Shown in pieces: positions 1 to 25,356 of a DNA stretch of 64,000 nucleotides (positions are counted from its first letter, which is position 1; the number at the start of each line of letters is the position of its first letter). The translations under genes and the position numbers were made by a program. This stretch comes from an uncultured Caldithrix sp. (GTDB lineage: Bacteria > Calditrichota > Calditrichia > RBG-13-44-9), in contig CAYWTB010000001.1 in the NCBI GenBank assembly GCA_964461135.1, forward strand, positions 8,082-72,081, written 5' to 3'. The notes beneath the pieces are model-generated. The model was not told where the DNA came from. It saw nothing but the letters and a program-made list of their open reading frames with translations, and ran no database searches.

Positions 1-708
1 CACCTTGACGTTAAAATTTCCAATAAATCCGGACACATGCTCAATTTCACTGTAAGCTAAAAGCTTTATTCGGGGATGTCGACCGACATCCATCATCTTC
101 GGTCCCAGAATTCATATGGAACAATCCATGGTCGGATAAGTCTTATCCAGTGCCGCCATTATACCACCGATGCTGGGTTCTTTTTCCACCAGGTAAACCT
201 GATGCCCTGCATCTGCCAGATCCAGCGCCGTCTGAATGCCCGCCACGCCTCCACCCACCACCAGCGCGCTTTTTGTCACCGGTACCTCTGCCTCAGTTTG
301 CGGTTCCAGAACCCGGGCGCGAGCCACTGCACTTTTTACCAGATCTTTGGCTTTGGCAGTAGCTGCCTCTCTTTCGTTCTGATGCACCCAGCTACAGTGT
401 TCCCGGATATTGGCCATTTCATACAGGTAGGGATTTAAACCTGCATCCGCCACGCATTGCCTGAAGGTGGGTTCATGAATTTTAGGTGTACAGGAAGCCA
501 CAACCACACGATTCAGTTTGTGTTCCATGATGGCCCGCTTGATTTCATTCTGGCCCGGATCAGCACAGGTGTATTTGTTGCGTACCACTACTACTACATC
601 ATCCAGCGTCTCAGAATATTTTGCCACCTCAGCGCAATCCACCGTGCCGGCAATATTCAGACCGCAATCACATACAAATACACCGATTCGTAATTTTTCT
701 TCATTCAT
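1..708 (-). CDS. hdrA: Heterodisulfide reductase subunit A (HdrA) paralog. Selenoprotein with in-frame UGA at 112..114. 5'-proximal part only; the CDS continues past the window start.
   Basis: Starts [21 protein letters not shown] (HdrA N-terminal 4-Cys domain). An FAD-binding GxGxxG domain follows ([18 protein letters not shown]), ending ...[33 protein letters not shown]. The frame stays open through position 1 after the TGA. The TGA replaces the second Cys of the conserved HdrA DCxxC(I)L(A/G)PK motif. Confidence 0.8.
61..111 (-). promoter_or_regulatory. Candidate SECIS hairpin immediately 3' of the UGA (mRNA GGAUG-UCGGUCGA-CAUCC)
   Basis: An 18-nt stem-loop at 74..91 lies about 20 nt downstream of the UGA. 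The hairpin segment is nucleotide-identical to the one after the second hdrA UGA apart from one loop base. The codons between UGA and hairpin differ at wobble positions. Confidence 0.35.
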
Positions 709-764: not shown

Positions 765-1532
765 TTAAATGGGACCCTCCGGATATTGGGTAAATTCGGA
801 AATGGAATCGATCATCTTCCGGACGCGCTTATCATACGGATTTAATTCCAGAGCTTTATTAAGACTGTAGAGCGCCTCATGGTGTCTTTCCAGATTGTTA
901 TAAGCCTTGCCCAGGTGATAATAAGCCGCTTCGTGATCCGGATGAACTTTCAGAAGCCTTCGCAGTACTTTTATGGCCTCTTTATTCTCTCCCATGGTTA
1001 AATAAATGATTGCCAGGTCATATAAGGTAATGAAGGACTGCGGGTCCCTCTTCAGTGAATTCAGCAAAGATTCGATTGCCTGGTGTGTATGGCCTGCCCG
1101 GTAATTCATGAGGCCCAGCCAGTAATATGCCATGCTGAATTCCGGGTCAATTTCCACCACGTGGTGCATGGATTTTATAGCCTGGTTTAGCTGAGCAGAC
1201 CGGAAATAACACAGACTCAAATGATAATGAGCAAGTGCAAAATTGGGATCGATTTCCAGGATTTCCTCAAATGTTGAAATTGCTTTCTTAATGTGGCCTT
1301 TTAAATAATACAGGTGTCCCAGATCATGACGGTATGATATATTTTCAGGTTCCTGGCTGATTTTCTTCTTTATTTTCTCAATTGCATCCTGCAGCTTTAC
1401 GGTATCCGAAAATTTTTCGTTGCCAATTTTAAATTGAGATGATTTTACAGTTTTTTTTGAACTTTTCTTGGCATCAGACAATTTTTTAATCCCCTTTTCC
1501 TTTATCTCAACACAGTCTACAACGGAACACAT
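765..1532 (-). CDS. Tetratricopeptide-repeat (TPR) protein
   Basis: Multiple 34-aa TPR-like repeats (AxxYYxLGxxYxxxGxxxxAIxxFxxALxLxP pattern repeated). Lys-rich C-terminus. Confidence 0.7.
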   Translation of the reverse strand: MCSVVDCVEIKEKGIKKLSDAKKSSKKTVKSSQFKIGNEKFSDTVKLQDAIEKIKKKISQEPENISYRHDLGHLYYLKGHIKKAISTFEEILEIDPNFALAHYHLSLCYFRSAQLNQAIKSMHHVVEIDPEFSMAYYWLGLMNYRAGHTHQAIESLLNSLKRDPQSFITLYDLAIIYLTMGENKEAIKVLRRLLKVHPDHEAAYYHLGKAYNNLERHHEALYSLNKALELNPYDKRVRKMIDSISEFTQYPEGPI

Positions 1533-1906
1533 TTATATCCGTAATGGATAATTCCTGCCGCACCGTCCTCCGAAATACGGCGGAATTCTATTCTTAAGGG
1601 CATTCCGGTGGCCAGTTTTTTCAAATCGCAATCCGAAATCTGTGAAAGAATCTTTACGCCTTCTTTTAAACGCACAATTCCAATGGCATAGGGAACCTGG
1701 TCTGAAAACCGGGAAGGAGCTACATGAATGATGGTATAGGTTTCCAGATTCCCTTCCCTGGAAAGGGTAATGGTTTCAAATTTCCGTTCTCCGCATTCTG
1801 CACAAACCAGCCTTTTCGGGAAATGAACATTTCCGCACTTCCGGCATTTTCCGGCTTCCATTCGGTAGCGATGAGGCATTTCGCGCCAATATTTTGAGAC
1901 TGACAT
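1517..1906 (-). CDS. DUF35 / Zn-ribbon + OB-fold protein (thiolase-HMGCS scaffold partner)
   Basis: CRKCGNVHFPKRLVCAECG zinc-ribbon followed by an OB-fold-like segment, about 129 aa. Translationally coupled to the upstream thiolase by a start/stop overlap at 1906. Confidence 0.75.
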   Translation of the reverse strand: MSVSKYWREMPHRYRMEAGKCRKCGNVHFPKRLVCAECGERKFETITLSREGNLETYTIIHVAPSRFSDQVPYAIGIVRLKEGVKILSQISDCDLKKLATGMPLRIEFRRISEDGAAGIIHYGYKCVPL

Positions 1907-3066
1907 TACACCACCTCCAAAATATGAACAAGAGTACTTCCCCCGCTTCCTCCCATGTTCTGGGAAAGGCCGGTTCGGGCGTTTTCCACCTGCCGGGCAC
2001 CGCCCTCCCCCCGCAGCTGAGTGACAATTTCCACAATCTGAGCAACTCCGGTAGCTCCCACCGGATGACCTTTCGATTTCAATCCTCCGCTCACATTTAC
2101 CGGGATCTTACCTCCCAACCGTGTTGCGCCTGAGGCTGTAGCGTCCCCGCCCTTCCCCCGGGCTGCAAAGCCCAATTCTTCAATCACACATATTTCTGCG
2201 ATGGTAAAACAATCATGAACCTCACACAGGTCAATTTTTTCCGGGGAAGTTTCTGCCATTTTGTAGGCCAGTTGTGCTGCTTTTGCGGTTGCCGGCAGGG
2301 AGGTCAGATCGGATCGGTTGTGTAACGCTATGCTGGCTGTGGCATGACCGAAGCCTTTTATTCTTACCGGAGGTTTTTTGGATATCTTTTTAGCCAGATC
2401 CAGCGGGCACAGGATTATGGCGGCAGCTCCATCGGTTATGGGTGAGCAATCCAGGATTCGGAGGGGATCGGCAATCATAACCGAATTCATAACCTGTTCT
2501 AGGGTTATTTTCTGAGGGTACTGAGCCAGCGGATTCATTGAACCGTGGTAGTGATTTTTCACCGCCACTTCGGCCAGCTGTTCACGGGTAGTACCGTATT
2601 TCAGCATATGAGATCTGGCCATCATAGCGTACAGTCCCGGAAAAGTGATGCCATGATAAACCTCGTAATCCTGGTCGGCAGCGGTAGCCAGTGCATAGGT
2701 AGCTTCATCCGTACCCACATCAGTCATTTTTTCCACCCCACCCACCAAAACCACGTCGCTTAATCCCAGGGCAACATCCATATAACCCATTTTTACAGCC
2801 AGGCCTCCCGATGCACAAGCGGATTCCACCCGGGCTGCCGGAATGGGGGTTACTCCCAGGTAATCTGCCATAAGGGCAGCCAGGTGTTCCTGGCCGGTAA
2901 AAATTCCCGCTGTCATATTACCAATATACATGGAGTCGATCTTATCCACCCCGGCATCATCAATAGCGGATTGTGCAGCCTCCACAAAAATATCCCGCAG
3001 AGAACTCTCCCATAATTCCCCCCATCTGCTCAAACCAATGCCAATCACTGCTACATCACGACTCAC
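1906..3066 (-). CDS. Thiolase family protein (acetoacetyl-CoA thiolase-like, SCP-x/archaeal type)
   Basis: [11 protein letters not shown]...ESACASGG (active-site Cys) ...GHPVGATG. 386 aa, thiolase fold signatures. Confidence 0.85.
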
Positions 3067-3105
3067 ATTCCGCTCCTTGTTTTTGCCTGCTCATATTTAT
3101 TGCCA

Positions 3106-4152
3106 TCAACTGTTTTTAATTATTTTTCGCCGGTATTTCGAATAAAGACCATAATCGAGATATATTTTTTCACCCTGAATGAGATCCCACGTTTTAGGAG
3201 CAGCGTCCCTCACCCTGCTGATTCTGTCGGTAATCTTCCAGATAAAGCCGTCGCTTCCCGCACCCGAGCCGTAAGATACCATAAAGATCAAATCCCCGGG
3301 ATTTGACACATCCAGGATGGCGGTTAGTCCCAGGGGCGACGAACCGGAGTAGGTATTTCCGATTTTAGGGCAGAGTAATCCCTGTGAAATCTGATCCTTG
3401 CTGAAACCCAGCATTTGTCCCACCTTGGTGGGGAATTTTCCGTTGGGCTGATGGAACACGGCATAAGCAAAATCGGATGGTTTCAATCCCGATTTATCCA
3501 GCATTGTTTTACCACACTGATATACGTGCTTAAAATACGCGGGCTCGCCGGTAAAACGGCCACCATGTTGCGGATAGAACTGGTGTTCCCGGCGCCAGAA
3601 GTCCGGTGTATCACTCATGAAGGAAAAGGTGAGTTCACAGCTAGCAATCAAATTATCTTTTCCCATGATAAAAGCCGCCGCACCGGCCGAGGCTGTATAC
3701 TCCAAGGCATCGCCGGGCGCGCCCTGGGAAGTATCCGCCCCCACCGCCAGGGCGTATTTCATGCTGCCGGCCTTTACCAACTGCAGGGCAACAAACATTG
3801 CCTCCGTTCCCGCTTTACAGGCAAATTCAAAATCGGCGCAATGGGCGTCCGGAGTGGCACCGATAGCTTCTCCCAGGGTTGTCCCGCTGGGTTTAACGGC
3901 ATAAGGGTGCGATTCAGAACCCACATAAACCGCTCCGATATCCGAGGCCCGGATACCTGCTCTGGCCAATGCCCGGCGGGACGCTTCCACAGACATGGTA
4001 ATGGTATCCTGATCGGGAGCAGGCACGGACTTTTCCTCTACCATTAATCCCTTACGGTAACTTTCCGCATCTGCCCCCCACTGGCGGGCGATTTCTTCAA
4101 CCCGGATCCGATATTTTGGAACATAACTGCCATATCCAACAATACCAACCAT
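3106..4152 (-). CDS. Hydroxymethylglutaryl-CoA synthase-like condensing enzyme (archaeal type)
   Basis: MVGIVGYGSYVPKYRI...ADFEFACKAGT... 348 aa. Initiation-condensing-enzyme fold with catalytic Cys. Typical of the HMGCS that partners with thiolase and DUF35. Confidence 0.75.
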   Translation of the reverse strand: MVGIVGYGSYVPKYRIRVEEIARQWGADAESYRKGLMVEEKSVPAPDQDTITMSVEASRRALARAGIRASDIGAVYVGSESHPYAVKPSGTTLGEAIGATPDAHCADFEFACKAGTEAMFVALQLVKAGSMKYALAVGADTSQGAPGDALEYTASAGAAAFIMGKDNLIASCELTFSFMSDTPDFWRREHQFYPQHGGRFTGEPAYFKHVYQCGKTMLDKSGLKPSDFAYAVFHQPNGKFPTKVGQMLGFSKDQISQGLLCPKIGNTYSGSSPLGLTAILDVSNPGDLIFMVSYGSGAGSDGFIWKITDRISRVRDAAPKTWDLIQGEKIYLDYGLYSKYRRKIIKNS

Positions 4153-4215: not shown

Positions 4216-5469
4216 TCAGGCGATTGCCGGTTTAAAAATAAATGTGGCAACGGTTTTGTCATCGCCGCCCATATTGATCATCATCCCATAAGGTCTCCCG
4301 GATGTTAACGGAACCTGGTACTCCTCCGCCCTTCCGGTCAGTTGCTGCCAGAGATCTACCGCCTGGCGGACACCCGTCCCGCCGGTAGGATGACCAAATC
4401 CGATAAGTCCACCGCTGGCATTTACAGGTATTTGGCCGCCTATAGCCGTCTTTTTTTCACTGATAAAATCCGCAGCTTCCCCTTCCTCCACTATGCAGGC
4501 GGCTTCCAGGGCAAGTAACGCCGTTATGGTAAAACAATCATGAATTTCCATGACACCGATGTCGGACGGTTTCAATCCTGCGCTTTCATAGGCTTTTTCG
4601 ACTGCTTTCTGAGTGGTGGTCAATCGGGTAAGATCTTTTGGCGGTTGCTTAATATCATCAACGGCGATTCCCAGAGATACCAGTTCAATGGCATCCCTGC
4701 GATCAATATTCAGTTTTTTTAAGCCGTCTTCAGAAGCGACAATCAGGGCAGAACCTCCGTCAGTCACTTTGGAGCAATCAAAAACGTTTAAATGCTCAAC
4801 AAAATACTTGGGATTGGGTGGAGTCATACCAGAGGCAAAAAGATCGTCAGTGGAATTATGATATTCCTGGGCCTTGGGATTTTTCCGGGCATTTTGAATC
4901 GCCTGTTCATACCAGTGTGCCATGGCAGTCCGTATTTTTTCCTGGCCGTACTTCCGGTAGCAGGCACCCGCCCTCTGAGAAAATTTGTCAGGAAAGAAAT
5001 GCGCATGACCTTCTTTTCTTTCTCCCTCATAGTACCCTGCCCCGGCCAGAAAATCTGCCCCATATACCGCTTTTACCGAGTTCTGTACCTCAACTCCCAC
5101 TGTCAGGACAACATCGGAAATTCCGGAGAGAACACTTTTTATGGCGGTATAGACACCTAATCCACCCGAACCACAGGCTCCTTCAATACGGGAGCATGGT
5201 TTATACAATAAGGACGGATCAATGGAGGGAATGAAAGCGGCCAGATTGCCCTGACGGTTGAAACGTGCAGCCATAAAATTTGATACCACACCTTCATCGA
5301 TCAGGTCAGCCCGGTTATTAATCCGGGCAATTGCCCCTTTCCCGGCTTCAATGATGTAATAATCAATTCCCGGCCGCGGTTTTTTAGGATGAAATTCTCT
5401 TCGTCCCGATCCTAAAAATACCGTATTATAACCAGCGGTCAGAAATACAGGTTTAGTTAATTTATTCAT
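4216..5469 (-). CDS. Thiolase-like protein (acetyl-CoA C-acyltransferase family)
   Basis: 417 aa. ...CSRIEGACGSGG ... GHPTGGTG ... thiolase N- and C-domain motifs. Confidence 0.75.
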   Translation of the reverse strand: MNKLTKPVFLTAGYNTVFLGSGRREFHPKKPRPGIDYYIIEAGKGAIARINNRADLIDEGVVSNFMAARFNRQGNLAAFIPSIDPSLLYKPCSRIEGACGSGGLGVYTAIKSVLSGISDVVLTVGVEVQNSVKAVYGADFLAGAGYYEGERKEGHAHFFPDKFSQRAGACYRKYGQEKIRTAMAHWYEQAIQNARKNPKAQEYHNSTDDLFASGMTPPNPKYFVEHLNVFDCSKVTDGGSALIVASEDGLKKLNIDRRDAIELVSLGIAVDDIKQPPKDLTRLTTTQKAVEKAYESAGLKPSDIGVMEIHDCFTITALLALEAACIVEEGEAADFISEKKTAIGGQIPVNASGGLIGFGHPTGGTGVRQAVDLWQQLTGRAEEYQVPLTSGRPYGMMINMGGDDKTVATFIFKPAIA

Positions 5470-5515
5470 ATTATCCCCGGTTTTTTAATCACAACTGTAG
5501 CACCTGATATTTTCA

Positions 5516-6856
5516 TTAAATATATTGATTTATGGGTCCATACAGATGATAGAACCCATTGAGCAACACCCCATTTACATCATCTTCCGAGCGGGCGACT
5601 CCGCTCTTCACCAGATTCCCGGCAATTTCCTTACTGTTCCGGAGATAATCCCTGGCCAGCACGGCACCCGGAGTGCCATCGGATTTAAGATTCCGGAAAT
5701 ATTGGGCAAGCTTTTCCTCCTTTTGAGGATCGCTCAGCAGTGCCCTCCAGGGAACAAATCCCAGCGGAGGATTTCCGGTTTTTTCTTCTGTTTTTTGCTT
5801 CCAGTCTCCTTCCTCAAACAGACGGTACCCGGATTTATCCGGATCATATACTCCGGATGGCCGGTTCTTTTCATACTTTAAGAATCCGTCTTTCTGGCTT
5901 CCCTCCGGATTCTGACCTCCCAGAACTTTCTGTTCGACCAGTTCATCAACTACCTTACTGTGCAGCTTCTCCTTTGGAAAATGAGGATTCATGGTTCGGA
6001 GAATACATTGAAACACATCAATTCCCACGTAATCAATTAGTTGAAAAATACCCATGGGGCGGATGAGAAAATCCTGACTGATTCGATTGAGAATATAAAC
6101 CCCCTCTACAAAACCGTATTCTTTCTGCAATTTTTCTACCTGATCCAGAGCATACAACCCATCGCGCATGAAGTGCCCGTTGCCAATAAAACCAGCCACA
6201 TCATTGGATGGAATGAGAGTTTTTCGTAGCCGTTTTCCGAGCTCCAGTCCCAATTCATGAAGCTCCGGATTTAATCCAACGGGCGAAATCACCTCTACCA
6301 GTTTCTGGACTGCCGGCGGATTGTAGAAATGATAACCGATGATTCTGCCACCTAATCCTGCCTGCTTATCCAGGAAACCTATGGGAATTGAGGAGGTGTT
6401 GGTGAGAAAGAACGCATCGTCTGAGCAAATCTTTTTTACTTTTTTCAGCAGAGATATCTTTAAATCCGCATCTTCCAGAACTGCTTCGAATATCATCCGT
6501 GAATTTTTCAACTGGCTCATATCAGTACTGATCCGGATATTCAGGAAAAAATCATTCACAAACTGGTTAATGAACTCATGATTTTCCACCAGTTCCTGAT
6601 GATCCTGGTATGCTTTCCGTAACATCCCGATATTTCTTTCCGCATGCTTGACAGCCTGGGTTCGGAGGTACTGCAGCAATCCTTCCAGCCTGGCGGCATC
6701 AGTATCAATGAGGTGCAATTCGCAGGTATCGTTTTTATGTTCGGGTGACAGACGCTGCATGGTCATTTCCTGGCCCATCAAAAGAGCAATTCCGCTTCCC
6801 ATTTTGCCGGCAGCACCTATTACACCCACATTACAAAGACGTTCATTCAATGTCAT
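5516..6856 (-). CDS. 3-hydroxyacyl-CoA dehydrogenase (long form, NAD-binding)
   Basis: VGVIGAAGKMGSGIA Rossmann motif and HBD-family C-terminal domain. 446 aa. Confidence 0.75.
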   Translation of the reverse strand: MTLNERLCNVGVIGAAGKMGSGIALLMGQEMTMQRLSPEHKNDTCELHLIDTDAARLEGLLQYLRTQAVKHAERNIGMLRKAYQDHQELVENHEFINQFVNDFFLNIRISTDMSQLKNSRMIFEAVLEDADLKISLLKKVKKICSDDAFFLTNTSSIPIGFLDKQAGLGGRIIGYHFYNPPAVQKLVEVISPVGLNPELHELGLELGKRLRKTLIPSNDVAGFIGNGHFMRDGLYALDQVEKLQKEYGFVEGVYILNRISQDFLIRPMGIFQLIDYVGIDVFQCILRTMNPHFPKEKLHSKVVDELVEQKVLGGQNPEGSQKDGFLKYEKNRPSGVYDPDKSGYRLFEEGDWKQKTEEKTGNPPLGFVPWRALLSDPQKEEKLAQYFRNLKSDGTPGAVLARDYLRNSKEIAGNLVKSGVARSEDDVNGVLLNGFYHLYGPINQYI

Positions 6857-6923: not shown

Positions 6924-8066
6924 CTAATTCAGGTTTTCGGCAATAATCTCTGTCAGATCTTTAATTTTAAAGGATATCTCTTCTTTTAACTGCTTATCCA
7001 GAAGAGCACACTGAAAGTGTATCTGGCACTTGGGACAGGAGGTCACCAGAATATCTGATCCGGTTGCCTGAGCTTCCCTTAAACGCCGGGCCTGAATCTG
7101 TTTTGAAATCTGCGAACAGTTCATCCAGCTGCTTACCCCGCAACAGATGGCTCGTTTATGATGGTGAGCCATCTCGGTCAGTGAAAGCCCTTTCAGCTGA
7201 GACAATGCCTGCCGGGGAGCATCATAAATACCCATATGCCTGCCCAGGCGGCAGGGATCCTGAAAACAGGCGGTAAGCGGTTGACCTTTCAATGAAACAG
7301 TGGTTTCGGGGAGCCGTTGTGCTAAAAACTCACTCACATGCTGCACTTCAAAATCAAGCTTTCCGAATAGTCCGGCGTATTCGACTTTCAGGGTGCGATA
7401 ACATTCGGGGCAGGCGGTAATGACGTATTTGGCTCCCGATTTTTTAATCTGTTCAATGTTCTGTTCAGCCAGTTTTCGAAAATTCTTTAAATCCCCGTTC
7501 CAGTAAAAATCATGTCCGCAACATTTTTCATTGGGCAATACCTGGGGTTTAATATCGAAATGATTCAAAATTTTCATCATACTGCGGGCAATATTTAAAG
7601 GCTGGACCTCAAGATCAGAAAACAGCGCCTCATAGTAAGGCAGGCAACCCACAAAGTATAAATAATCTCCAGACGTTGATGTCTGGTATTCTTTGCTTAG
7701 CCAGTCCAGCCGCTGCTGTTTGAGATCGGGTGAGGTCATGATTTTTAGAATTGAATCCAGAATGCCGCCATGGGAGCAGGTACCTTCGCGGTTCTCCACG
7801 CCCATAAATTGCCGCATCAGCTGAATAAACTCGATATATTTTATATGAGACGGGCAGATGGTATCACATTGCTGACAGGTTAAACAGGACCACAAATCCG
7901 CTCCCTTCAGTCCATCAGGATGAGTATTCCTTATGGATCTGATCAGGATAAGCCGTGGAGAAAAAGTCTTCGAATGACGGGAAACCGGGCACACACCGGT
8001 GCATTTGCCACATTCCAGACAGGCAAAGGCATTGGTTTCCTGAATTTGTTTAAAATTAAATTCCAT
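6924..8066 (-). CDS. hdrD: HdrD-like (fused HdrC+HdrB) Fe-S / CCG-domain protein
   Basis: Two 4Fe-4S ferredoxin motifs (CLECGKCTGVCP, CLTCQQCDTICP). Two cysteine-rich CCG domains follow (CCGHD...CPECY; CCGVSS...CPKCQ). Confidence 0.75.
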   Translation of the reverse strand: MEFNFKQIQETNAFACLECGKCTGVCPVSRHSKTFSPRLILIRSIRNTHPDGLKGADLWSCLTCQQCDTICPSHIKYIEFIQLMRQFMGVENREGTCSHGGILDSILKIMTSPDLKQQRLDWLSKEYQTSTSGDYLYFVGCLPYYEALFSDLEVQPLNIARSMMKILNHFDIKPQVLPNEKCCGHDFYWNGDLKNFRKLAEQNIEQIKKSGAKYVITACPECYRTLKVEYAGLFGKLDFEVQHVSEFLAQRLPETTVSLKGQPLTACFQDPCRLGRHMGIYDAPRQALSQLKGLSLTEMAHHHKRAICCGVSSWMNCSQISKQIQARRLREAQATGSDILVTSCPKCQIHFQCALLDKQLKEEISFKIKDLTEIIAENLN

Positions 8067-8092: not shown

Positions 8093-8572
8093 TTAAGCAT
8101 TGGCGGCAATTTTATCTTTTTGTGCGGAGACGCTGTCTTCCTTAATGGATTTCAGGGGAGTAGGTCCCAGCTTCCTCACCTCTTCCACCATTTCCTTAAC
8201 AACTTTTACAAACTTGGGAAATTCAGCTGCAGAGATGAATTCCTGCCGTATTCTTTCCTTCTCAAATCCCAGCATTCTGACCACTGCCTTCAGTTTTTTA
8301 TATTGTTCCGCCGCCTTGCGGGCACCGAAACTGTAATGGCAATCCTCAAAGTGGCAGCCGGATACCAGTACTCCGTCCGCTCCCATCTCCAGCGCTTTCA
8401 GGACATGTGCGGGATTGACCCGTCCCATGCACATGGTACGAATGATCCGGATATTGGCAGGATACTGCATCCGGTTAATCCCGGCGGAATCAGCCGCGGG
8501 ATAACTGCACCAGTTACAGGCGAATACGACAATCCTCGGTTCAAACTCTTTCTTTGCAGCTTTTCGGGTCAT
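8093..8572 (-). CDS. mvhD: MvhD-like hydrogenase iron-sulfur subunit (HdrA electron-transfer partner)
   Basis: IVVFACNWCSYPAADSAG ... VSGCHFEDCHY: the MvhD signature. Confidence 0.85.
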   Translation of the reverse strand: MTRKAAKKEFEPRIVVFACNWCSYPAADSAGINRMQYPANIRIIRTMCMGRVNPAHVLKALEMGADGVLVSGCHFEDCHYSFGARKAAEQYKKLKAVVRMLGFEKERIRQEFISAAEFPKFVKVVKEMVEEVRKLGPTPLKSIKEDSVSAQKDKIAANA

Positions 8573-8621: not shown

Positions 8622-11600
8622 CTAAACGGCCTCCTCTTCCAGTAAAAATGCCCTGAGCATGGATTCAATCTGGCGATCCCGGAAATGCTGAATGTCAATG
8701 GCACTGGTGGGACAGAAGGTTGCGCAGGTTCCGCATCCTTTGCAGAGGGCTTCATTAACTGTTGCCAGCATAATTCCACCCCTATCCTGCAGAGAGAGTG
8801 CACCGAATTCACACACTTCCACACAGGTACCGCATCCACGACACAAATCCTCCCTCACAGACGAAACCAGTGGTTCCATCAGAATTGTGGATCTGGCCAG
8901 CAAAGCATCTATTTTTGCGGCCACCGCATTAGCCTGTCCGATGGAATCGGAAATATCCTTGGGGCTCTGTACGCATCCGCAGATAAATACTCCTTCAATA
9001 TTGGTTTCCACCGGACCAAACTTGGGATGCTTTTCCAGTAAATATCCGTCCATACCCACCGGAACTTTTATGAACTGCTGGATATGTTCGATTGAGCCGG
9101 AAGAGGGACGCATGCCGACCGACAGGATCAGAAGATCAACCGGAACTTCTATATCGGTTTTCAAAGATGGTTCCCAAAACCGAAGAGTTTCCACATTCTT
9201 ATGGCCGGTCAGCCGCGGAAGATCCTGCGGCGTAAAGCGTACAAACCTGACTCCCAGCTCCCGGGCCTGCCGGTACATGGTTTCAGCTTCATGGTGATAT
9301 ACCCGGATATCACGGTTAAAAACGGTAACTTCTATTCCCCGCTGCCGTAAAGCAATCGACTGCTTAATGGCCGCCTGGCAGCAATATCTTGAACATTCGG
9401 GCAATCCTTCCGGCCCGCGGGACCCCACGCACTGGATAAATGCCACCTGTTTGATTTCTTTTCCGTCAATGGCCAGCAACTGCTCCTTCTTCAAACGATT
9501 TTCCAGTTCCATGTTGGTGATGACATTTTTATATTTGCCATACCCGAACTCATTCTTGACGGGTTCATATAAACTGAATCCGGTTGCCAGAACAATAGCA
9601 CCCACCATGAACGGTTTATTCTCAGACTTTCCGTTAGTGGATTTCAGAGTGACTTCAAAATTCCCCACGAAACCTTTAATATCCTCAATATCGGTATCTG
9701 TAAATATTTTTACTTTGTCTTTATTTAATTCCTGCACTTTACTCCGGATCAGTTCTTTACCGGACATTCCGCTGGGATAAAGGATCTCCAGCTCTTTTAC
9801 CCATCCTCCCAGGGCCTTGTCTTTTTCCACCAGCAGGACGTTGTAATCCCGTTTTCCCAGCTGAAGCGCCGTTTCAATGCCCGAAATTCCGCCACCGATA
9901 ACCAGCACGTCATGTCCGATTTCCATCTCCTTCGGCTCCAGCGGTTCCAGCTGCCGCACCCTGGCCACCGCCATGCGGAGCAGGTCTTTTGCCTTACGCG
10001 TGGCCGCATCCGCAGCCTGCCCATGAACCCAGGAACATTGATCCCGGATATTAGCCATCTCCAGCAGATAAGGATTAAGGCCCACCTTGCGCAAGGTTTC
10101 CCGGAATATCGGTTCATGAGTACGAGGAGTACAGGCAGCCACCACCACCCGGTTAAGACGGTTAGATAATATTTTTTCCTGTATATTCCTTTGAGTACTC
10201 TCGGCACAGGCGAAGAGGAGATCTTCGGAGAATACCACATCCGGCAATCCGAGCGCATAATCCTTGAGAGTTTCCACATCCAGAACACCGGCGATATTGG
10301 ATCCGCAATGGCACACAAAGACGCCTACCCTCGGAGATCCGCTATAGTCGTATTCCGGGATTTCCTCTTTGATTTCGGGCATTTTATGGTGGGTAAGAAA
10401 CTGGGCGGCTCTCACTGCCGCACCCGAAGCCTCTGCAATAGAATCGGTAATATCCTTGGGACCGGTGGTGCATCCACACAGATAAATGCCTTCACGCCGG
10501 GATGATATGGGATCTCCGCAACGGTCTCTGGGAAGGAAAAATCCGCGGCTATCGGTTTTGATCTCCAGAATTTCCGCCAGGCTGTGGGACTCGGCAGCCG
10601 GTACCACCGCTTCCGATAAAATAACCATGCCGGTGCGCAATTTATCCGTCTGTCCGGTTTCCACATTTTCATTGAGAATGACCAGATCTCTGCTGCCGGG
10701 GTCTTCCACAATGCGGGACGGTTTTCCTCTGATAAAATGAATATTTTTATCGTGTAACGCTCTCTGATAAAATTGTTCAAATCCTTTACCAAATGCACGG
10801 ATGTCAATATAAAAAATATCAACACTGGTCTTGGGATACATTTCGCGTATCAGCAGAGCACTTTTTATGGCGTTCATGCAGCATATTCTGCTGCAGTAAG
10901 GTATATCCCGGCGGATACACCGCGATCCCACGCATTGAATGAATGAGACCCGCTTCGGTGGTTTCTGGTCGGTAAACCTGACTAATTGTCCCCCGGAAGG
11001 GCCGCTGGGACTGAGCAGCCGTTCAAGTTCGATGCTGTTTACCACATTTTCGAAACGTGTATATCCGTATTCGCTGGCCTCCCGCGGATCATAATAATCA
11101 ATACCGGTGGCAATAATGACTGCCCCCACATCAATCTCTTCCGTTCTATCCGGCATATCCAGATCAATGCAATTTTTCTGGCAGACGTCCACGCATTTTC
11201 CGCAGGCAATGGGATTGGTACCAAGACAATCATCGGCAGACCGGATATAGGCGGATGGAACGGCTTGTGAAAATGGAGAGTAAATAGCTCGCCGCAGGCA
11301 TAATCCTTCATCAAACTCATTGGGCTGAACTACAGGACAGACGTCCGAACAATCTCCGCAGGCGGTACATTCCGCTTCATTTACAAATCTGGCTTTACGA
11401 AGAATTTTTGCTCGGAAATTTCCGGCCTTGCCTGAAAGTCTAACAAGTTCTGCATTGGTATACAACTGAATTCTGGGATGCCGACCGACATCCATCATCT
11501 TGGGACCGAGAATTCAGATAGCGCAGTCCATGCTGGGAAAAGTCTTGTCCAGCTTGGCCATGGTTCCACCAATACTGGGCTGCTTTTCCAGCAGGTATAC

Positions 11601-11699
11601 CTGGAATTGGGCATCAGCCAGGTCCAGCGCCGCCTGAATTCCGGAAATACCTGCCCCCACAATCAAAGCACCCTTGGGTCTTTCTGATCTGGAAACCAT
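8622..11699 (-). CDS. hdrA: Tandem-domain heterodisulfide reductase subunit A (HdrA). Selenoprotein with in-frame UGA at 11514..11516. About 1024 aa.
   Basis: The ORF track splits it into 11514..11699 and 8622..11498, but ...[27 protein letters not shown]... is in frame. Architecture: FAD domain ([19 protein letters not shown]), then 2x[4Fe-4S] ferredoxin and a 4-Cys [10 protein letters not shown] domain. A second FAD domain ([15 protein letters not shown]) lacking the Cys/Sec motif and a C-terminal 2x[4Fe-4S] ferredoxin follow. Confidence 0.85.
11463..11513 (-). promoter_or_regulatory. Candidate SECIS hairpin 3' of the UGA (mRNA GGAUG-UCGGUCGG-CAUCC)
   Basis: Stem-loop at 11476..11493. The same element is found after the UGA of the hdrA paralog at 112. 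Confidence 0.35.
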
Positions 11700-11809: not shown

Positions 11810-12379
11810 TCAGGCAACACTTTTTTTAGGAGACTCCAGCAGACTTTTTCCGTATTGAAAACCGGTTTCAAAGGCTTTTAGATTGAGCTCTTCCGTTCCC
11901 GGAGGAACAGATGTTTCAACGGCTTTTTTGGTAGCCTCATAGGACGTAATCCCGGTAACGGCGGAGAAAAATCCCACCATAATAATATTGGTAACAATCT
12001 TGCGGCCCATTTCTTCCGCCAGGCGGGTGGCCGGAATGGCATAGGTGGAGACTTTTTTTGAATTCTTTGCAAGGTGCACCAGATCCTTTTCCACCAGTAA
12101 TATACCATCCTCCGGAATTTCTCCGCTGAATTTGTCATGCGCATCCCGGGACAGGAGGACTCCTATATTAGGTTGAATAAGGTAGGGGTAAAGAATCTGC
12201 GACTCGGAAATGATAACCTGGGCTGAACAGGAACTCCCGCGCGCTTCAGGTCCGAAACTCTGAATCAGGGTGGAATATTTATTATCATAAATAGCTGCTG
12301 CTTTCCCGATAATATAACCCGCCAGGATAATTCCCTGCCCGCCAAATCCGGCGATACGAATTTCACTGTTTTTCTTCAT
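11810..12379 (-). CDS. 2-oxoacid:ferredoxin oxidoreductase, gamma subunit
   Basis: EIRIAGFGGQGIILAG... Por/Vor/Kor gamma family. 190 aa. Confidence 0.8.
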   Translation of the reverse strand: MKKNSEIRIAGFGGQGIILAGYIIGKAAAIYDNKYSTLIQSFGPEARGSSCSAQVIISESQILYPYLIQPNIGVLLSRDAHDKFSGEIPEDGILLVEKDLVHLAKNSKKVSTYAIPATRLAEEMGRKIVTNIIMVGFFSAVTGITSYEATKKAVETSVPPGTEELNLKAFETGFQYGKSLLESPKKSVA

Positions 12380-13286
12380 GCACAACCCCGTAAGGTTTAA
12401 ATTTGTTCCCTAATTTCTTCTGCAGATATTCATTGTACTGATCCAGATAGGAGGGTTTATCTATATCAATAAATTTCCCAACCTTTATTTCTTCCTGAAA
12501 CTGGATAGAAACATCACGAACATCGGCACCATGTGCTATGACAGAATTATCATGATAAAATTTCATCAGATCCAGACCGCTTCCCAGGCGGTTTTTGCGG
12601 GCGTAGAGAGTTGTACAGGGGCAGATTATTTCCACAAAGGAAAAACCCTTTTTATGCAAGGCTTCATTTATAGAGTTGGTGAGCCGCCTGACGTGCAGGG
12701 CGGTCCAGCGGGCCACGTACACCGCACCACAGGAGGCTGCCAGCAACGGAAGATTAAAGGGATTTTCATAACTCCCATAGGGAGCGGTAGTGGCAATTGC
12801 AGTAAGCGGAGTGGTTGGTGCCAGTTGACCACCGGTCATGGCATATATAAAATTATTAATACACAATACAGTGATATCAAGATTGCGCCTGGCGGTATGG
12901 ATGAAGTGATTGCCTCCGATGGAAATCAGGTCACCATCCCCACTAAAAACCACTACCTTCAGTTTTGGCTTGGCCAGTTTCAGGCCCACGGCAAACGGAA
13001 TGGCACGGCCGTGAGTGGTATGAAAGGAATCCAGTTTAATATAACCGGCGATTCGTCCGCTGCAACCGATCCCGGACACAACACTGATATCCTCCTTTGG
13101 AATCTGTGATTTTTTCACTGCTTCAATAAAACAGGTTACCGCTGTTCCAATTCCGCAGGTCGAACACCAGATATGAGGAATCCGATCCATCCGCAGCCAT
13201 TCCGAGAGAGGATGTTCCGCACCGTTCTCCTGTTCTTTTTTAGTTTTTGTCCCGGGCTTGACTTTTTCGATAACTTCGGCTTTCAT
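12363..13286 (-). CDS. 2-oxoacid:ferredoxin oxidoreductase, beta subunit (TPP-binding)
   Basis: WCSTCGIG...GIGCSGR...GDGD TPP-binding motifs. Start ATG overlaps the alpha stop (ATGA). Confidence 0.85.
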   Translation of the reverse strand: MKAEVIEKVKPGTKTKKEQENGAEHPLSEWLRMDRIPHIWCSTCGIGTAVTCFIEAVKKSQIPKEDISVVSGIGCSGRIAGYIKLDSFHTTHGRAIPFAVGLKLAKPKLKVVVFSGDGDLISIGGNHFIHTARRNLDITVLCINNFIYAMTGGQLAPTTPLTAIATTAPYGSYENPFNLPLLAASCGAVYVARWTALHVRRLTNSINEALHKKGFSFVEIICPCTTLYARKNRLGSGLDLMKFYHDNSVIAHGADVRDVSIQFQEEIKVGKFIDIDKPSYLDQYNEYLQKKLGNKFKPYGVVHEEKQ

Positions 13287-14443
13287 TTATGTGCCTCCTT
13301 AATTGCCTCTTGGATACATTCCGGCCTGTGAACCGTTCCACCGCCATGGGGGACAAGTAAAGTCTTACATTGTCCGCCTGTACACCGTTCAACCTCATAA
13401 ACAATCTGGCCGTAATTCATCTCCGGTACCACAAACGCCTTTATTTTGGGAGCCAGCTTCCGAATCAGATTTTCCGGAAACGGCCATACAGTAATGAGAC
13501 GGACATGACCGATTTTTTTAATTCCATCCTCCTGCGCCAGCTGAATTCCTCGCAGCGCAACCCGGGAAGTTATACCATAAGAGATCACCACAATTTCAGC
13601 ATCATTCAGATTTTCTTCTTCGTAAATATAAATATCATCAGCGTTCTTTTTAATTTTATCTATCAGGCGGTGAACACATTTCTCCTGAGTCTGCCAGCTC
13701 ATGTCAGGATATCCCCGTTCATCATGAGTCAGTCCGGTCACATGAAAAAAGTGGCCGCGACCCGCCTCTACCATATCGGGTACCAGGTCTTCTCCCGCTT
13801 CGAAGGGCAGATATTGTCCAGGCTTTTTACTGGTAAATCGACGGGGAAACAACTCAATTTTTTCGGGTTCCGGAATCACCACTTTTTCAGTCATATGGCC
13901 GACGCATTCATCCATCATGAATAAAACCGGTACCCGGTATTTTTCAGATAAATTAAAGGCGGTAATGGTAAGATCGAAGCATTCCTGCGGTGAATTGGGG
14001 CAGAGGGCAATAATTTCGTAGTCTCCGTGTGATCCCCAGCGGGCCTGCATCATATCCGCCTGGCCGGGAAGTGTAGGCAATCCGGTTGAGGGTCCGCCCC
14101 GCTGAACGTTCACCACCACGCATGGAGTTTCCAGCATGACCCCCAGGCCAATATTCTCCATCATTAGTGAGAATCCCGGACCTGAGGTTACCGTCATGGA
14201 TTTTGCCCCTGCCCATGATGCTCCCAGGATAGCCGCCATGGAAGCAAGTTCATCCTCCATCTGAATGAACATACCACCTACCATGGGAAATCGTTCGGAT
14301 ATCCGCTCGGCGACTTCGGTTGAGGGAGTAATCGGATATCCCGCAAAGAACCGGCAGCCTGCCGCCAGACCACCTTCCGCACAGGCCTTATCACCATCCA
14401 GATAATGCATGCCGGTTAATACCCCTGCCGAATCAGCTTTCAT
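13283..14443 (-). CDS. 2-oxoacid:ferredoxin oxidoreductase, alpha subunit
   Basis: GYPITPSTE...VTSGPGFSLM family motifs. Start placed at the internal ATG (MKADSAG) preceded by AAGGAG. The upstream extension in the ORF track overlaps the delta gene. Confidence 0.85.
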   Translation of the reverse strand: MKADSAGVLTGMHYLDGDKACAEGGLAAGCRFFAGYPITPSTEVAERISERFPMVGGMFIQMEDELASMAAILGASWAGAKSMTVTSGPGFSLMMENIGLGVMLETPCVVVNVQRGGPSTGLPTLPGQADMMQARWGSHGDYEIIALCPNSPQECFDLTITAFNLSEKYRVPVLFMMDECVGHMTEKVVIPEPEKIELFPRRFTSKKPGQYLPFEAGEDLVPDMVEAGRGHFFHVTGLTHDERGYPDMSWQTQEKCVHRLIDKIKKNADDIYIYEEENLNDAEIVVISYGITSRVALRGIQLAQEDGIKKIGHVRLITVWPFPENLIRKLAPKIKAFVVPEMNYGQIVYEVERCTGGQCKTLLVPHGGGTVHRPECIQEAIKEAHK

Positions 14444-14714
14444 GTGCTCGCTCCTTTTCGTTCTGAAGTACACAATATATCGCAAATTCCGGGCATAACA
14501 TCTCACACAGCTGACAATGAACACAGATAGTCCCATTCTTTACAATCGGGGGATGGTAACCTTTGGAATTGAATTCTGTGGAAAGTTCTAGAACATCTTT
14601 GGGGCAATATTCCACGCAAAAACCACACCCTTTACATCGTTCCCATAGAATATGAAGCTCTCCGTGAGGAATTTTTACCCGGTCGATATCCAACGGTTTA
14701 CGCCAATATTTCAT
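14433..14714 (-). CDS. 2-oxoacid:ferredoxin oxidoreductase, delta subunit (2x[4Fe-4S] ferredoxin)
   Basis: CKGCGFCVEYCP and CVHCQLCEMLCP motifs. 93 aa. Confidence 0.85.
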   Translation of the reverse strand: MKYWRKPLDIDRVKIPHGELHILWERCKGCGFCVEYCPKDVLELSTEFNSKGYHPPIVKNGTICVHCQLCEMLCPEFAIYCVLQNEKERAHES

Positions 14715-15994: not shown

Positions 15995-17041
15995 TTAATA
16001 TAACTGTTCCCTTGGTGAAACCGGACCTTCCAGGGCTTCCGGTTTTATTTTTCCGGTCAGGGATTTCAGAAAGGCCACAATATGATTTGCTTGGTCGGAG
16101 GACAACTCTTTTCCCAATTGAAGTCTGGCCATCATGGGAACTACCCGGTGCAGGTTATCCACGCTGCCATCGTGGAAATAAGGTGCGGTCATTTCCACAT
16201 TCCGCAGGGGGGGTACCTTGAATACATACAGGTCCGCCGTATCCCCGGTAACAGCAAACCTGCCGGAATCGATTTCGGTACTTCCGATCAGTTTCCAGTA
16301 GGGCTCAATAATGCCAAATTTTTCATACTGCCCGCCACCCACCAATACTCTGTTATGACAATCTTTGCATCCGGTATCCATAAATATTTTCAAACCCTTC
16401 TGTTCTTTTTCCGTAAGGGCATTGGGATGCCGCTTCAAAAACTGATCAAAGCGGGAAGGAGTTACCAGGGTTCTTTCCCAGGCACCAACGGCCAGCCCGA
16501 AATTTCTGGCATTTAAAGGGACAGAGTCATTGGGAAACGCTTCTTTAAACAGTCCCTGATAACCGGCAATGAAATTCATTTTTTCTTCTGCCTGTTCATA
16601 GGATTCCAGACCATAGGAGCCATGTCCCAGCAAAGCTTTCTGTGCCTGATCCTCCACAGATTTACGGTTGCCGATCCAGTGCTGGGATATCTGCAGAGCT
16701 GAATTCAGAACGGTGGGAGCATTTCTGGGATTGAGCCGGTAATTATTCCCGATCGATTTTTTTAATCCGTCGGTGCCATACAGGTTCATCCAGTGACATT
16801 TGAAACAACTGGTTGTACCATCGATGGAAAGGCGGGTATCATAAAACAGCATCTTCCCCAGTTTGGTTTTTTCGGGGGTTATGAGATTATCGCCCGAAAT
16901 CATTTTCCCCGGAAGAACCTGGAAATAATTCCGGGCTTCGCTGACCAGGGAGTTCTTCTTCCCGCAGGTTAATAAAACGCCACTCGAAATGATAAGTACC
17001 ATCATAAAAAGGTAAAAGGTCTTCATCTCGGTTGCCTCCAT
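15995..17041 (-). CDS. Di-heme cytochrome c peroxidase (CCP/MauG family)
   Basis: Two CxxCH heme motifs (CFKCH, CKDCH). Signal peptide. 348 aa. Confidence 0.85.
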   Translation of the reverse strand: MEATEMKTFYLFMMVLIISSGVLLTCGKKNSLVSEARNYFQVLPGKMISGDNLITPEKTKLGKMLFYDTRLSIDGTTSCFKCHWMNLYGTDGLKKSIGNNYRLNPRNAPTVLNSALQISQHWIGNRKSVEDQAQKALLGHGSYGLESYEQAEEKMNFIAGYQGLFKEAFPNDSVPLNARNFGLAVGAWERTLVTPSRFDQFLKRHPNALTEKEQKGLKIFMDTGCKDCHNRVLVGGGQYEKFGIIEPYWKLIGSTEIDSGRFAVTGDTADLYVFKVPPLRNVEMTAPYFHDGSVDNLHRVVPMMARLQLGKELSSDQANHIVAFLKSLTGKIKPEALEGPVSPREQLY

Positions 17042-17134: not shown

Positions 17135-19225
17135 TTATTTCTCAACTTTCAGAAACCTGGCATTTACCGCCACAATCACGGTACTCATGGTCATCAGCAC
17201 TGCTCCCATGGCCGGACTCAACAGGATACCCACGCTATAGAGTGCACCCGCTGCCAGAGGAATAGCAATGGCATTGTAACCGGTGGCCCAGACCAGATTC
17301 TGCACCATTTTGCGATATGTTGCTTTCGCGAGCGCAATAATATCCACCGCATCCTGGGGATTACTGCGAACCAGCACAATGTCCGCTGTTTCCACCGCTA
17401 CGTCTGTCCCGGCACCGATGGCAATTCCCACATCGGCCTGTGCCAGCGCCGGTGCATCATTCACACCATCACCGGTCATGGCCACTACCAGCCCGCGGGA
17501 CTGTACTTCTTTAACTTTCGCTGCTTTCTGTTCCGGCAGCACCTCCGCAAAATAATCATCCAGGCTAAGTTCCGCCGCCACATATTCCGCCACCCGTTTA
17601 TTATCCCCGGTAAGCATCATGACCTGGATGCCCATTTCCTTCAGACGGGAAATAGCCTCTCTGGATTCATCGCGGATAATATCTGCCAAAGCGATGGCAC
17701 CCTGCGGTTTATCATCCAGCAGTAAAAATACAACTGTTTTCCCCTGAGAATTCAGTTCCTCTACCTTTCGGTTTTTCACCTCAATACTTTTCTCCTGCAG
17801 GTAGCCGGGACTCACCACCTTTACCAGCTTCCCATCCACCTTTCCCTGTGCTCCTTTTCCAGGGATAGATTTGAAATCAGACACTTTTTTTATATTCCCG
17901 GCCGATTGAACAATTCCTTTGGCGATGGGATGTTCTGAGTTCTGTTCCACCGCTGCGGCATAGGCCAGTATCTGCAAGTCATTCAGGTCCTCCGCCAGCG
18001 CCACTGTATCAGTCACCCTGAAATTACCCTGAGTGAGCGTACCGGTTTTGTCGAAGATTATAGCCTGCAGATTGCGTGCTTTCTCGAAGGCCGCCCGGTT
18101 GCGGATCAGCAGTCCGTTGCGGGCGGAAATGGCGGTTGAGACCGCCACTACCAGCGGTACTGCTAAACCCAGAGCATGTGGGCAGGTAATGACCATCACC
18201 GTTACGGTGCGTTCCAGGGCAAACACAAAATCCTTATGAACAATCACCAGCCACACGAACATGGTTATTGCACCGGCAGAGAGGGCAATAATCGTCAACC
18301 AGAAAGCGGCCCGGTTGGCCAGATCCTGAGTCTTCGATTTGCTTTCCTGGGCCTGGCGAACCAGCTCAACTACCTGCGAAAGATAAGAGTCCTTGCCTGT
18401 TTTTTCCACTTCAATGGTTAGGGATCCTTCACCATTAATGGATCCACCGATTACTTTCCTGCCCGTTTTCTTTGAGACCGGTCTGGATTCACCGGTTATC
18501 ATGGCTTCATTTACCGAACTTTCTCCTTCCACCACTTTTCCATCGGCCGGAATCTTCTCACCCGGTTTGACCAGTACCCGGTCACCTGAGACTAATTCAT
18601 CCAGGGGTACATCTTTTACACTATCATCTTTCATGATTTTATGTGCCTCGGAAGGCATCAGTTTGGCCAGTTCTTCCAGGGCCCGCGAAGCCCCCATAAC
18701 CGATTTCATTTCGATCCAGTGACCGAGCAGCATAATATCAATCAGGGTGGCCAGTTCCCAGAAAAAGATTTTACCTTTTACCCCGAATACCACTGCCGAA
18801 CTGTAGAAATAAGCAACGGCAATGGCCAGCGCAATCAGGGTCATCATCCCCGGATTTTTTTGTCGCAGTTCATCGAATAAACCCTTCAGGAAGGGCCAGC
18901 CCCCGTAGAAAAAAACAGCAGTGGAGAACAGGAAATTGAGAAAAAGATCACCCGAAAATCGGATGCTTTCACCCAAGCCCAGAAATCCCTGAATCATGGG
19001 AGAGAGCAGCAGAATCGGTATGGTAAGAATCAATGAAATCCAGAAACGTTTGCGGAAATCAGCCACCATGTGAGCATGGTGGCCGGCATGATTAGCGTGT
19101 CCGCCATCGCCGGTATGCTCCTCATGCATCACATCATGACCATGATGACTGACATGGCCATTGGGTTTTGTTTTCTCTTTCGCCTGGGTATCCTCTGCCG
19201 GGTGATGATGGTCCTGTTCGGGCAT
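17135..19225 (-). CDS. copB: Copper-translocating P1B-type ATPase, CopB-like (His-rich N-terminus, CPH motif)
   Basis: N-terminal HHHPAEDT...[11 protein letters not shown]...[15 protein letters not shown] motif ([12 protein letters not shown]), DKTGTLT and GDGVNDAP. Confidence 0.85.
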
Positions 19226-23637: not shown

Positions 23638-23752
23638 TAGTCATTCATTCAATGTCTGGTGTCGGTTGTTTGCGATCCGCAGCCGGCTTCCTTTCAATCA
23701 CCGCTTCAAAATCGGCAATCCGGAAGGGCCGGGACTACGGACCCTATAAAAC

Positions 23753-25327: not shown

Positions 25328-25356
25328 ATAAAATTATATTTTAAAATTCTCTTTTT

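Follow-up and report, generated by a model that had tools for sequence, protein, structure and literature searches.

What does a UGA codon mean when it falls on a conserved cysteine in a gene that is otherwise open from end to end? The question is raised by a 64-kb stretch of DNA (hereafter, the window), which a scan of genome collections assigns to the Calditrichota (top match Caldithrix sp. RBG_13_44_9, 82%), and within it by a minus-strand gene of the HdrA family. From comparison with homologous loci we conclude that this UGA (positions 11516-11514) is very probably recoded as selenocysteine (Sec, U) within one 1025-residue HdrA-family flavo-iron-sulfur protein, in which two HdrA units are fused. 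Coordinates of all features are collected in Table 1.

A single reading frame with UGA on a conserved cysteine

The list of open reading frames (ORFs) holds two minus-strand entries at this place, 11514..11699 (61 aa) and 8622..11498 (958 aa), each opening with ATG. Translated in one frame, 8622-11699 yields 1025 codons with the TGA as the sole internal stop, in agreement with an initial annotation of this DNA, which had taken the two entries for one frame split only by TGA 11514..11516. The DNA around the site reads ATG GAC TGC GCT ATC TGA ATT CTC GGT CCC AAG ATG ATG GAT GTC or, as protein, SMDC59-A-I-U62-ILGPK followed by MM. Aligned with HdrA of M. thermolithotrophicus (5odc_A), query residue 10 equals chain residue 145, and U62 therefore corresponds to Cys197. 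This alignment, together with the published Sec197 and CxxU motif, also bears out that the in-frame UGA occupies the second cysteine of DCxxC-ILxPK, a known Sec site of HdrA, as had been proposed from the sequence. HdrA is a listed selenoprotein family with a CxxU motif (PMC13188914). Its status as a bacterial selenoprotein dates from 2006, when it was described in Deltaproteobacteria, Clostridia and Moorella, M. thermoacetica having a Sec-HdrA, along with hdrA-hdrA fusions in Deltaproteobacteria and Clostridia (PMC1794560).

Is the codon a peculiarity of this genome? We read it in 35 Sec-type genes, 22 of them fused like the window gene and 13 of canonical domain order (two in the window, 17 in Calditrichota loci and 16 in other loci). 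It is TGA in all 35 and TAA or TAG in none, whereas about 45 Cys-type homologous loci have TGT or TGC at the same codon; the latter is the state of ANME-2 (anaerobic methanotrophic archaea), Theionarchaea, Planctomycetota, Acidobacteria, Chloroflexota and deltaproteobacterial homologues (31-41% identity). The fused gene carries the TGA in 12 of 12 Calditrichota loci that contain its Sec-codon part, and TGA is likewise found in loci from other lineages (L058-L064), among which three matches are named Acidobacteria, Neomarinimicrobiota and Eisenbacteria. Since the same TGA recurs in the window's second HdrA gene and in 33 further Sec-type genes, chance is excluded. The 61 codons ahead of the UGA are 77-91% identical to the window in the 11 Calditrichota loci that matched, and the downstream part 70-82%. 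This upstream fragment encodes only the first beta-alpha-beta (GxGxxG) of the FAD (flavin adenine dinucleotide) fold plus Cys59, so that the FAD domain is incomplete without it.

A hairpin downstream of the UGA

A candidate bacterial Sec insertion sequence (SECIS) follows the UGA, a hairpin with a 7-bp stem and a GGUC loop, in which the stem begins 20 nt and the loop 27 nt past the UGA. Its minimum free energy (MFE) is -9.6 kcal/mol (z = -2.2), and that of the corresponding hairpin in the canonical paralogue of the window -10.2 kcal/mol. In loop, stem, spacing and energy the hairpin lies within every constraint of the published bacterial SECIS model, namely a loop of 3-9 nt starting G[G/U], a stem of 4-16 bp, a distance of 16-37 nt between UGA and loop, and an MFE of -7.5 kcal/mol or lower (PMC13188914).

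Across 29 aligned sequences, 98% of cells are paired, as against 23-58% when the partner strand is slid. Constraint on synonymous sites in the hairpin is clear: among its third codon positions, columns 27, 30 and 39 have an entropy of 0, column 33 one of 0.22, and column 36 is A or G only, both of which pair, whereas flanking third positions range from 1.0 to 1.9 bits, with the exception of a two-fold Lys site (column 18, 0.48). Pair 29-36 is U-A in 21 sequences, U-G in five and C-G in three, the C-G cases going with a Val-to-Ala replacement and having G as the partner every time. Covariation is modest because the hairpin is almost invariant; in distant relatives the loop also reads GGUA or GGCA, and a single A-C mismatch occurs within the hairpin. 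A long outer stem (UGAAUUCU/AGAAUUCA), which appeared in a 67-nt fold after the UGA, was rejected, as it is not kept in homologues (z of the whole region, -0.95).

Probable selenocysteine decoding and its alternatives

In the proposed mechanism, a SelB-type SECIS hairpin 20 nt 3' of the UGA would direct Sec insertion at codon 62. The dedicated hairpin and the SelB and SelD genes that adjoin Sec-HdrA in relatives point to canonical Sec decoding. In L062, SelD (335 bits, cut-off 125) and SelB (340 bits, cut-off 242) flank the canonical Sec-HdrA and precede the fused one, and L064 has a SelB gene as well. When the window was scanned for further in-frame TGA codons, no Sec candidate beyond the two HdrA sites looked real; the remaining matches arise where a gene end was read on into the sequence behind it, or lie beneath ORFs of the opposite strand, and a match at 41863, located under plus-strand genes (PcrB/SIS), was discarded. 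An AIR-synthase-family ORF at 30796-31884 was considered as SelD and rejected, scoring far under the SelD, HypE and ThiL cut-offs and having no upstream in-frame extension; the gene that adjoins it is ThiL.

Several observations weigh against Sec insertion at this codon. The 64-kb window contains no selA, selB, selD or tRNA-Sec according to profile scans of its ORFs, tblastn and ARAGORN, the last of which returned no tRNA at all in the window or in 18 related loci. The SelB and SelD of L062, used as tblastn queries against the related loci and the window, had no match outside L062, and a homology search for SelB gave many SelB proteins, none of them named Calditrichota. As to the hairpin, true covariation is confined to a single pair and the energy z-score is only about -2; the conserved peptide MMDVGRHP could explain part of its conservation; and no Rfam SECIS family was matched, either across the whole window at the gathering threshold or in 11380-11580 at E up to 10, where the only matches were chance ones, to a microRNA and a long non-coding RNA.

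How well would other explanations do? The gene might be genuinely split into a 61-residue peptide ended by the UGA and a separate 958-residue protein from the ATG at 11498, with the chains assembling non-covalently or the small one being non-functional. This is the model found in gene calls and in every database entry, 115 of the 120 database representatives starting at MMD[VAT]GRH; the ATG lies 15 nt past the stop, and the absence of visible Sec machinery from the window speaks in its favor, too. We nevertheless regard it as very improbable, given a stop that is TGA in every Sec-type gene and occupies the very codon used for Cys by all Cys-type homologues, five codons from TGA to ATG (ILGPK) that are in frame and conserved, a conserved SECIS-like hairpin just behind, and SelB embedded in the cluster in relatives. 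The 61-residue fragment, made up of the GxGxxG beta-alpha-beta and Cys59 only, is moreover more conserved than the rest. For the same reasons—a codon that is always TGA, and upstream codons that are more conserved than those downstream and encode no more than the first beta-alpha-beta of the FAD fold—a division into two polypeptides at this point is rejected as the norm among homologues, an outcome that the initial annotation had allowed for.

A single base change suffices to make TGA from TGT or TGC, and the window probably derives from a metagenome-assembled genome, as the closest relatives all do. A pseudogene, or an assembly or sequencing error in a Cys-containing gene, would nonetheless have to recur in both window paralogues and in 33 further genes that were assembled independently from different samples and phyla, and to leave 1025 codons without other frame disruption, which makes this explanation extremely improbable. 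Full-length protein could also arise without selenium if UGA had the meaning of a standard amino acid throughout the genome (as in genetic code 4 or 25), or if a near-cognate tRNA, for Cys or Trp, decoded it. As TGA ends 11 of the 35 window ORFs of at least 250 aa, including the gene for the alpha subunit of a 2-oxoacid:ferredoxin oxidoreductase (OFOR), it is a normal stop here and UGA is not generally reassigned; no other in-frame TGA of the window resembles a Sec candidate, and the dedicated hairpin and the adjacent SelB and SelD of relatives speak for canonical Sec decoding. We give this explanation very little credence. From the frame, the pairing of Sec with Cys across homologues and the hairpin, we infer Sec at residue 62 of one continuous protein, and the sections below build on this reading.

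Two HdrA units in one polypeptide

What kind of protein does the complete frame encode? In a phmmer search of PDB sequences with U written as C, its match was 5odc_A (E = 4.2e-202), in three rearranged stretches. Residues 10-350 align with 145-480 of that chain, which covers a thioredoxin reductase (TrxR)-like FAD domain with its inserted ferredoxin domain, and residues 455-615 align with 3-163, from the [4Fe-4S] 'N-terminal' domain into the second FAD motif, with all aligned cysteines kept. Residues 10-48 contain the FAD Rossmann motif of the first domain, residues of about 104-180 its ferredoxin insert, 455-590 the VCHCG cluster domain and 596-940 the second FAD domain; this second TrxR-like domain retains both the cluster motif CVGSR...C..CC and the Lys that comes next. 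With one GxGxxG motif at 13-20 and another at 599-606, the polypeptide has two TrxR-like FAD domains, and an internal alignment of its halves gives 32% identity across 247 residues. Their losses are complementary, the C59/U62 pair being found in unit 1 only and the cluster domain before unit 2 only. Two HdrA units are in this way fused into one pseudo-heterodimer.

Aligning the joined protein with HdrA families, a check suggested by the initial annotation, placed it in the HdrA superfamily, by way of 5odc_A and of NCBIfam HdrA2 (NF040770; 1096.8 bits, just under the cut-off of 1100). Lower scores were obtained with NF041778 (HdrA; 830.8, cut-off 1400) and NF041891 (746.5, cut-off 1300), and all NCBIfam HdrA matches fall in three permuted stretches. 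With scores under the curated cut-offs and a domain order that is not collinear, assignment as an equivalog of the methanogen CoB-CoM heterodisulfide reductase HdrA was rejected. The domain map drawn from the sequence alone holds for the FAD/TrxR-like start, the mid-protein cluster domain and the second FAD domain without the pair, and needs correction with regard to two ferredoxin inserts: only one is inserted, and the other is C-terminal. Nor is the domain order as unusual as was thought, since the same fused pseudo-heterodimer is known from ANME, Moorella and BamE. In the fused HdrA of ANME and of MetFV-HdrABC-MvhD from Moorella thermoacetica, Cys197 and the N-terminal cluster domain are complementary between the halves, which has been read as a built-in heterodimer (PMC9012536).

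Genomic context and a possible route for electrons

Immediately upstream of the fused HdrA gene and co-directional with it lies an OFOR block (11810..14714; Pfam POR_N, TPP_enzyme_C and POR), and downstream follow genes for an MvhD-like and an HdrD-like subunit, the latter with TfrB, LdhH and GlpC as top NCBIfam matches, each under its cut-off. The order OFOR delta-alpha-beta-gamma, Sec-HdrA, MvhD, HdrD-like is found in 15 loci, 11 from Calditrichota plus L058-L061, three of which four carry Acidobacteria, Neomarinimicrobiota and Eisenbacteria names; these are all the Sec-type loci compared that hold enough upstream DNA. Cys-type homologues lack this seven-gene order: ANME-2 has HdrD, HdrA and MvhD and no OFOR, and in Planctomycetota and similar groups MvhD is followed by two separate HdrA half-genes. 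We found no paper describing the OFOR/Sec-HdrA/MvhD/HdrD-like cluster in the literature searched.

How might Sec62 act in such a setting? In HdrA, Cys197 of one protomer is donated to the N-terminal cluster of its partner (PMC9012536), and in the Sec197-containing HdrA of M. maripaludis, electron cryo-microscopy (cryo-EM) revealed a Cys-Sec bridge between cluster A3 and FAD, the pair being proposed to work as a thiol-selenol shuttle (PMC13518236). In one state of BamE, the 59-62 pair is 3.4 A away from cluster E3, and it has been proposed to relay the low-potential electron from the flavin (bioRxiv 10.64898/2026.04.10.717634). By analogy with these solved HdrA and BamE structures, Cys59/Sec62 would be located beside the single mid-protein cluster, and Sec62 might serve a low-potential branch leading from the FAD of unit 1 through the mid-protein cluster to the inserted ferredoxin domain. 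Together with the adjacent MvhD-like and HdrD-like subunits, the HdrA protein could form an electron-bifurcating (or confurcating) flavin-based module of the HdrABC-MvhD or BamFED type. Judged by synteny and homology, its low-potential partner is probably the OFOR encoded directly upstream, in whichever direction the coupling might run. Aminotransferases and an ADP-forming acyl-CoA synthetase, also encoded in the window, would fit amino-acid fermentation with low-potential electrons derived from OFOR. Two points limit this scheme: the coupling to OFOR is proposed from gene order, and the Lys is kept in both FAD domains, so that it does not single out the bifurcating flavin.

One may go further and ask whether the OFOR delta-alpha-beta-gamma/Sec-fused-HdrA/MvhD/HdrD-like cluster encodes a physically coupled supercomplex. 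We rate this as a tentative and rather doubtful extension. In such an assembly, OFOR would connect straight to the low-potential arm of a bifurcating flavoprotein of the HdrA type, with Sec62 on the relay, and the oxidation of 2-oxoacids (or reductive carboxylation) would be linked to a thiol/disulfide couple with no free ferredoxin in between. Known analogues are BamBC of class II benzoyl-CoA reductase and Fwd, which belongs to the Hdr-Vhu-Fwd assembly of methanogens. If true, sediment bacteria that ferment peptides would possess a new class of bifurcating enzyme built on HdrA.

Table 1. Features of the fused Sec-HdrA locus and of related genes. Positions refer to the window unless another locus is named.
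Feature	Position	Strand	Basis
Fused (tandem) HdrA-family gene, complete, 1025 residues, probable selenoprotein	ATG 11699 to stop 8622	minus	Single frame with one internal TGA; HdrA homology
UGA codon, putative U62, CxxU pair with Cys59	11514..11516	minus	Aligned to Cys197 of 5odc_A; TGA in 35/35 Sec-type genes
Candidate bacterial SECIS hairpin, GGAUGUC-GGUC-GGCAUCC	11476..11493	minus	MFE, conservation, published constraints
FAD-binding Rossmann beta-alpha-beta (GAGISG) of TrxR-like domain 1, before the UGA	11556..11672	minus	Pfam NAD_binding_8, DAO and others, residues 12-48
Inserted 2x[4Fe-4S] ferredoxin domain in TrxR-like domain 1	11160..11390	minus	Pfam Fer4_2, Fer4_16, residues 104-176; aligned to 5odc_A insert
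Mid-protein copy of HdrA 'N-terminal' [4Fe-4S] domain (AACTPR ... DQCSW)	9930..10337	minus	Alignment to 5odc_A 3-163
TrxR-like FAD domain 2, without Cys/Sec pair and without inserted ferredoxin	8880..9914	minus	Pfam Pyr_redox_2, residues 596-920; internal alignment
C-terminal 2x[4Fe-4S] ferredoxin domain	8670..8861	minus	Pfam Fer4, Fer4_7, Fer4_21, residues 947-1004; aligned to 5odc_A C-terminal ferredoxin
MvhD-like [2Fe-2S] adaptor subunit, Cys form, intact ORF	8093..8572	minus	Pfam FlpD (1.9e-51); NCBIfam VhuD, HdrA2 C-terminus
HdrD/BamD-like subunit, 2x[4Fe-4S] and two CCG domains	6924..8066	minus	Pfam CCG (x2), Fer4_8
OFOR delta	14433-14714	minus	ORF list; NCBIfam score under cut-off
OFOR alpha	13283-14536, likely start near 14443	minus	NCBIfam, 575 bits (cut-off 411)
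OFOR beta	12363-13286	minus	Pfam
OFOR gamma	11810-12385	minus	Pfam; NCBIfam score under cut-off
5' part of second, canonical-order Sec-HdrA (cluster domain first), runs off window	1..708	minus	UGA 114-112
Hairpin of second Sec-HdrA, GGAUGUC-GGUC-GACAUCC	74-91	minus	One pair-preserving change (CGG to CGA)
SelD and SelB genes in relative L062	807-1796 and 4381-6285		NCBIfam, both above cut-off
SelB gene in relative L064	2389-4311		Same place as L062 SelB, between canonical and fused Sec-HdrA

Other genes around the cluster

The genes downstream of the cluster vary between loci: the window encodes a 3-hydroxyacyl-CoA dehydrogenase-like protein and an archaeal-type thiolase/HMG-CoA synthase/DUF35 trio there, other loci HdrB/C-like proteins. 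With OFOR upstream, 3-hydroxyacyl-CoA dehydrogenase, thiolase and HMG-CoA synthase downstream, and neither BamBC nor BamGHI among the neighbors, a class II benzoyl-CoA reductase system (BamB-I) was rejected. The genes directly downstream of the HdrD-like gene (4216-6856, minus strand) code for a protein of 446 residues that resembles 3-hydroxyacyl-CoA dehydrogenase and has a large insertion in the NAD domain, and for a second, SCP-x-type thiolase; the pair is kept there in several Calditrichota loci (L001, L003, L007, L011). Beyond it, at 1517-4152 (minus strand), an HMG-CoA synthase (TIGR00748, 538 bits), a thiolase and a DUF35/ChsH2 OB-fold scaffold protein make up an archaeal-type mevalonate entry trio, and a PcrB-family (GGGP-synthase-like) gene is found at 41420-42169 (plus strand). 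The trio and PcrB recall archaeal-lipid gene sets reported for FCB-group bacteria.

On the other side, a heavy-metal efflux block extends over 17135-26655 (minus strand), with a P-type ATPase and a CusA/CusB/CusC-type RND system (HMBD domains), near which lie a di-haem cytochrome c peroxidase gene (15995-17041) and a YceI-like gene. In the Acidobacteria locus L058, a gene for a GcvH-like (lipoyl-carrier) protein (L058 3273-3659) stands immediately upstream of OFOR delta. Its product might carry disulfides to the HdrD-like subunit; the window showed no counterpart.

A second probable Sec-HdrA and its variants in relatives

The window's second Sec-HdrA gene, of canonical order, is present as a 5' part only (Table 1). 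Paralogues of this type with TGA at the site also occur in L004, L006, L008, L022, L024 and L058-L061, and in relatives they extend some 610-630 codons past the Sec codon, for a total of about 810-835 residues. An MvhD/FlpD domain at their C-terminus in L061, L062 and L064 marks the canonical paralogue as an HdrA2-type fusion.

Some of these relatives depart further from the pattern. At L062 2462-2473 and L064 494-505, the canonical HdrA-MvhD gene reads ATG GAC TGA GCG ATA TGA (D-U-A-I-U), that is, both codons of the cysteine pair are UGA. This suggests a UxxU diselenide pair that would be served by a single hairpin, a variant of HdrA for which we found no description in the literature searched. 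L064 contains four UGA-split HdrA genes inside 17.5 kb. The fused Sec-HdrA of L062 (6563-10762) and L063 (6158-10414) is about 1400 residues long, with an NfnB/GltD-like module (Fer4_20 plus an NAD(P)-binding domain) inserted after the Sec region, which suggests a pyridine-nucleotide-linked variant.

Databases and significance

How is this protein represented in public databases? Among its 120 best database representatives, which are 53-100% identical, not one contains the N-terminus: the 115 beginning at MMD[VAT]GRH start with the Met right after ILGPK, and the other five are fragments. In the contigs that we fetched, gene calling has made the upstream piece a gene of its own, 55-58 residues long, for which FAD-binding Pfam hits are the only annotation. 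For a whole clade of fused HdrA genes, the public proteins stop short at the UGA, and the FAD-binding N-terminus and the Cys/Sec pair are missing from all 120 of these representatives. Any metabolic reconstruction of Calditrichota or their relatives therefore contains a broken key redox enzyme and overlooks the use of selenium.

Earlier publications cover the Sec site and the selenoprotein family, Sec-HdrA in bacteria, hdrA-hdrA fusions and the architecture of a pseudo-heterodimer, and the existing picture of Sec decoding and HdrA architecture is unchanged by the present data. What they add is the phylum, a very conserved candidate SECIS, an OFOR linkage conserved across several phyla and the systematic mis-annotation. 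Selenium-dependent HdrA would hereby extend to the Calditrichota, for which no selenoproteins were described in the literature that we searched; in the genome paper of C. abyssi, Hdr genes come up only next to a group 3c hydrogenase, and selenoproteins do not come up at all. The Cys194/Cys197 site is discussed in 2026 structures as an unresolved thiol-selenol relay beside the bifurcating flavin, and the strictly conserved link to OFOR suggests, as a lead that can be tested, a new physiological partner in bifurcation of the HdrA type.

Comparison with known systems

With the HdrA of M. maripaludis (Sec197) and of M. thermolithotrophicus and M. wolfeii (Cys197; PDB 5ODC and related entries), the window protein shares the FAD/TrxR-like core at about 50% local identity, the DCxxC/U-IL-x-PK motif, the cluster domain, the inserted and C-terminal ferredoxin domains, and an MvhD partner. 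Methanogen HdrA, however, is a symmetric homodimer, whereas the window protein combines two TrxR-like units in one polypeptide with the cluster domain in the middle; it differs further in its bacterial host, a predicted SECIS inside the ORF, an HdrD-like partner in place of HdrB and HdrC, and a context without methanogenesis. The ANME-2 homologues (L013-L023) come closer in architecture, having the same order and length at 39-40% identity, but carry Cys (TGT/TGC) at the site and lie in the context HdrD, HdrA, MvhD without OFOR. ANME HdrA3 and HdrA4 differ again, their halves being arranged in the opposite order (PMC9012536).

A further counterpart is BamE of the class II benzoyl-CoA reductase of Geobacter metallireducens, described by cryo-EM as a fused HdrA dimer whose TrxR1 has Cys59-Cys62 and, near N5 of the bifurcating FAD, Lys280 (bioRxiv 10.64898/2026.04.10.717634). 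Going by that description, on which our comparison with BamE is based, both proteins have TrxR1 first, with C59/U62 in the window against Cys59-Cys62 and K279 against Lys280, followed by a second TrxR, and both have inserted and C-terminal ferredoxin domains; their neighbors, too, correspond, as MvhD-like (BamF) and HdrD-like (BamD) subunits. The low-potential module, by contrast, is OFOR in the window and BamBC in the Bam system, BamGHI has no counterpart, and TrxR2 keeps the Lys where BamE has Gln768. Selenium itself appears to have a different place in the two: BamE has Cys at 62 and the Sec belongs to BamF (Sec19), whereas in the window the predicted Sec lies in the HdrA subunit and MvhD is a 159-residue Cys form.

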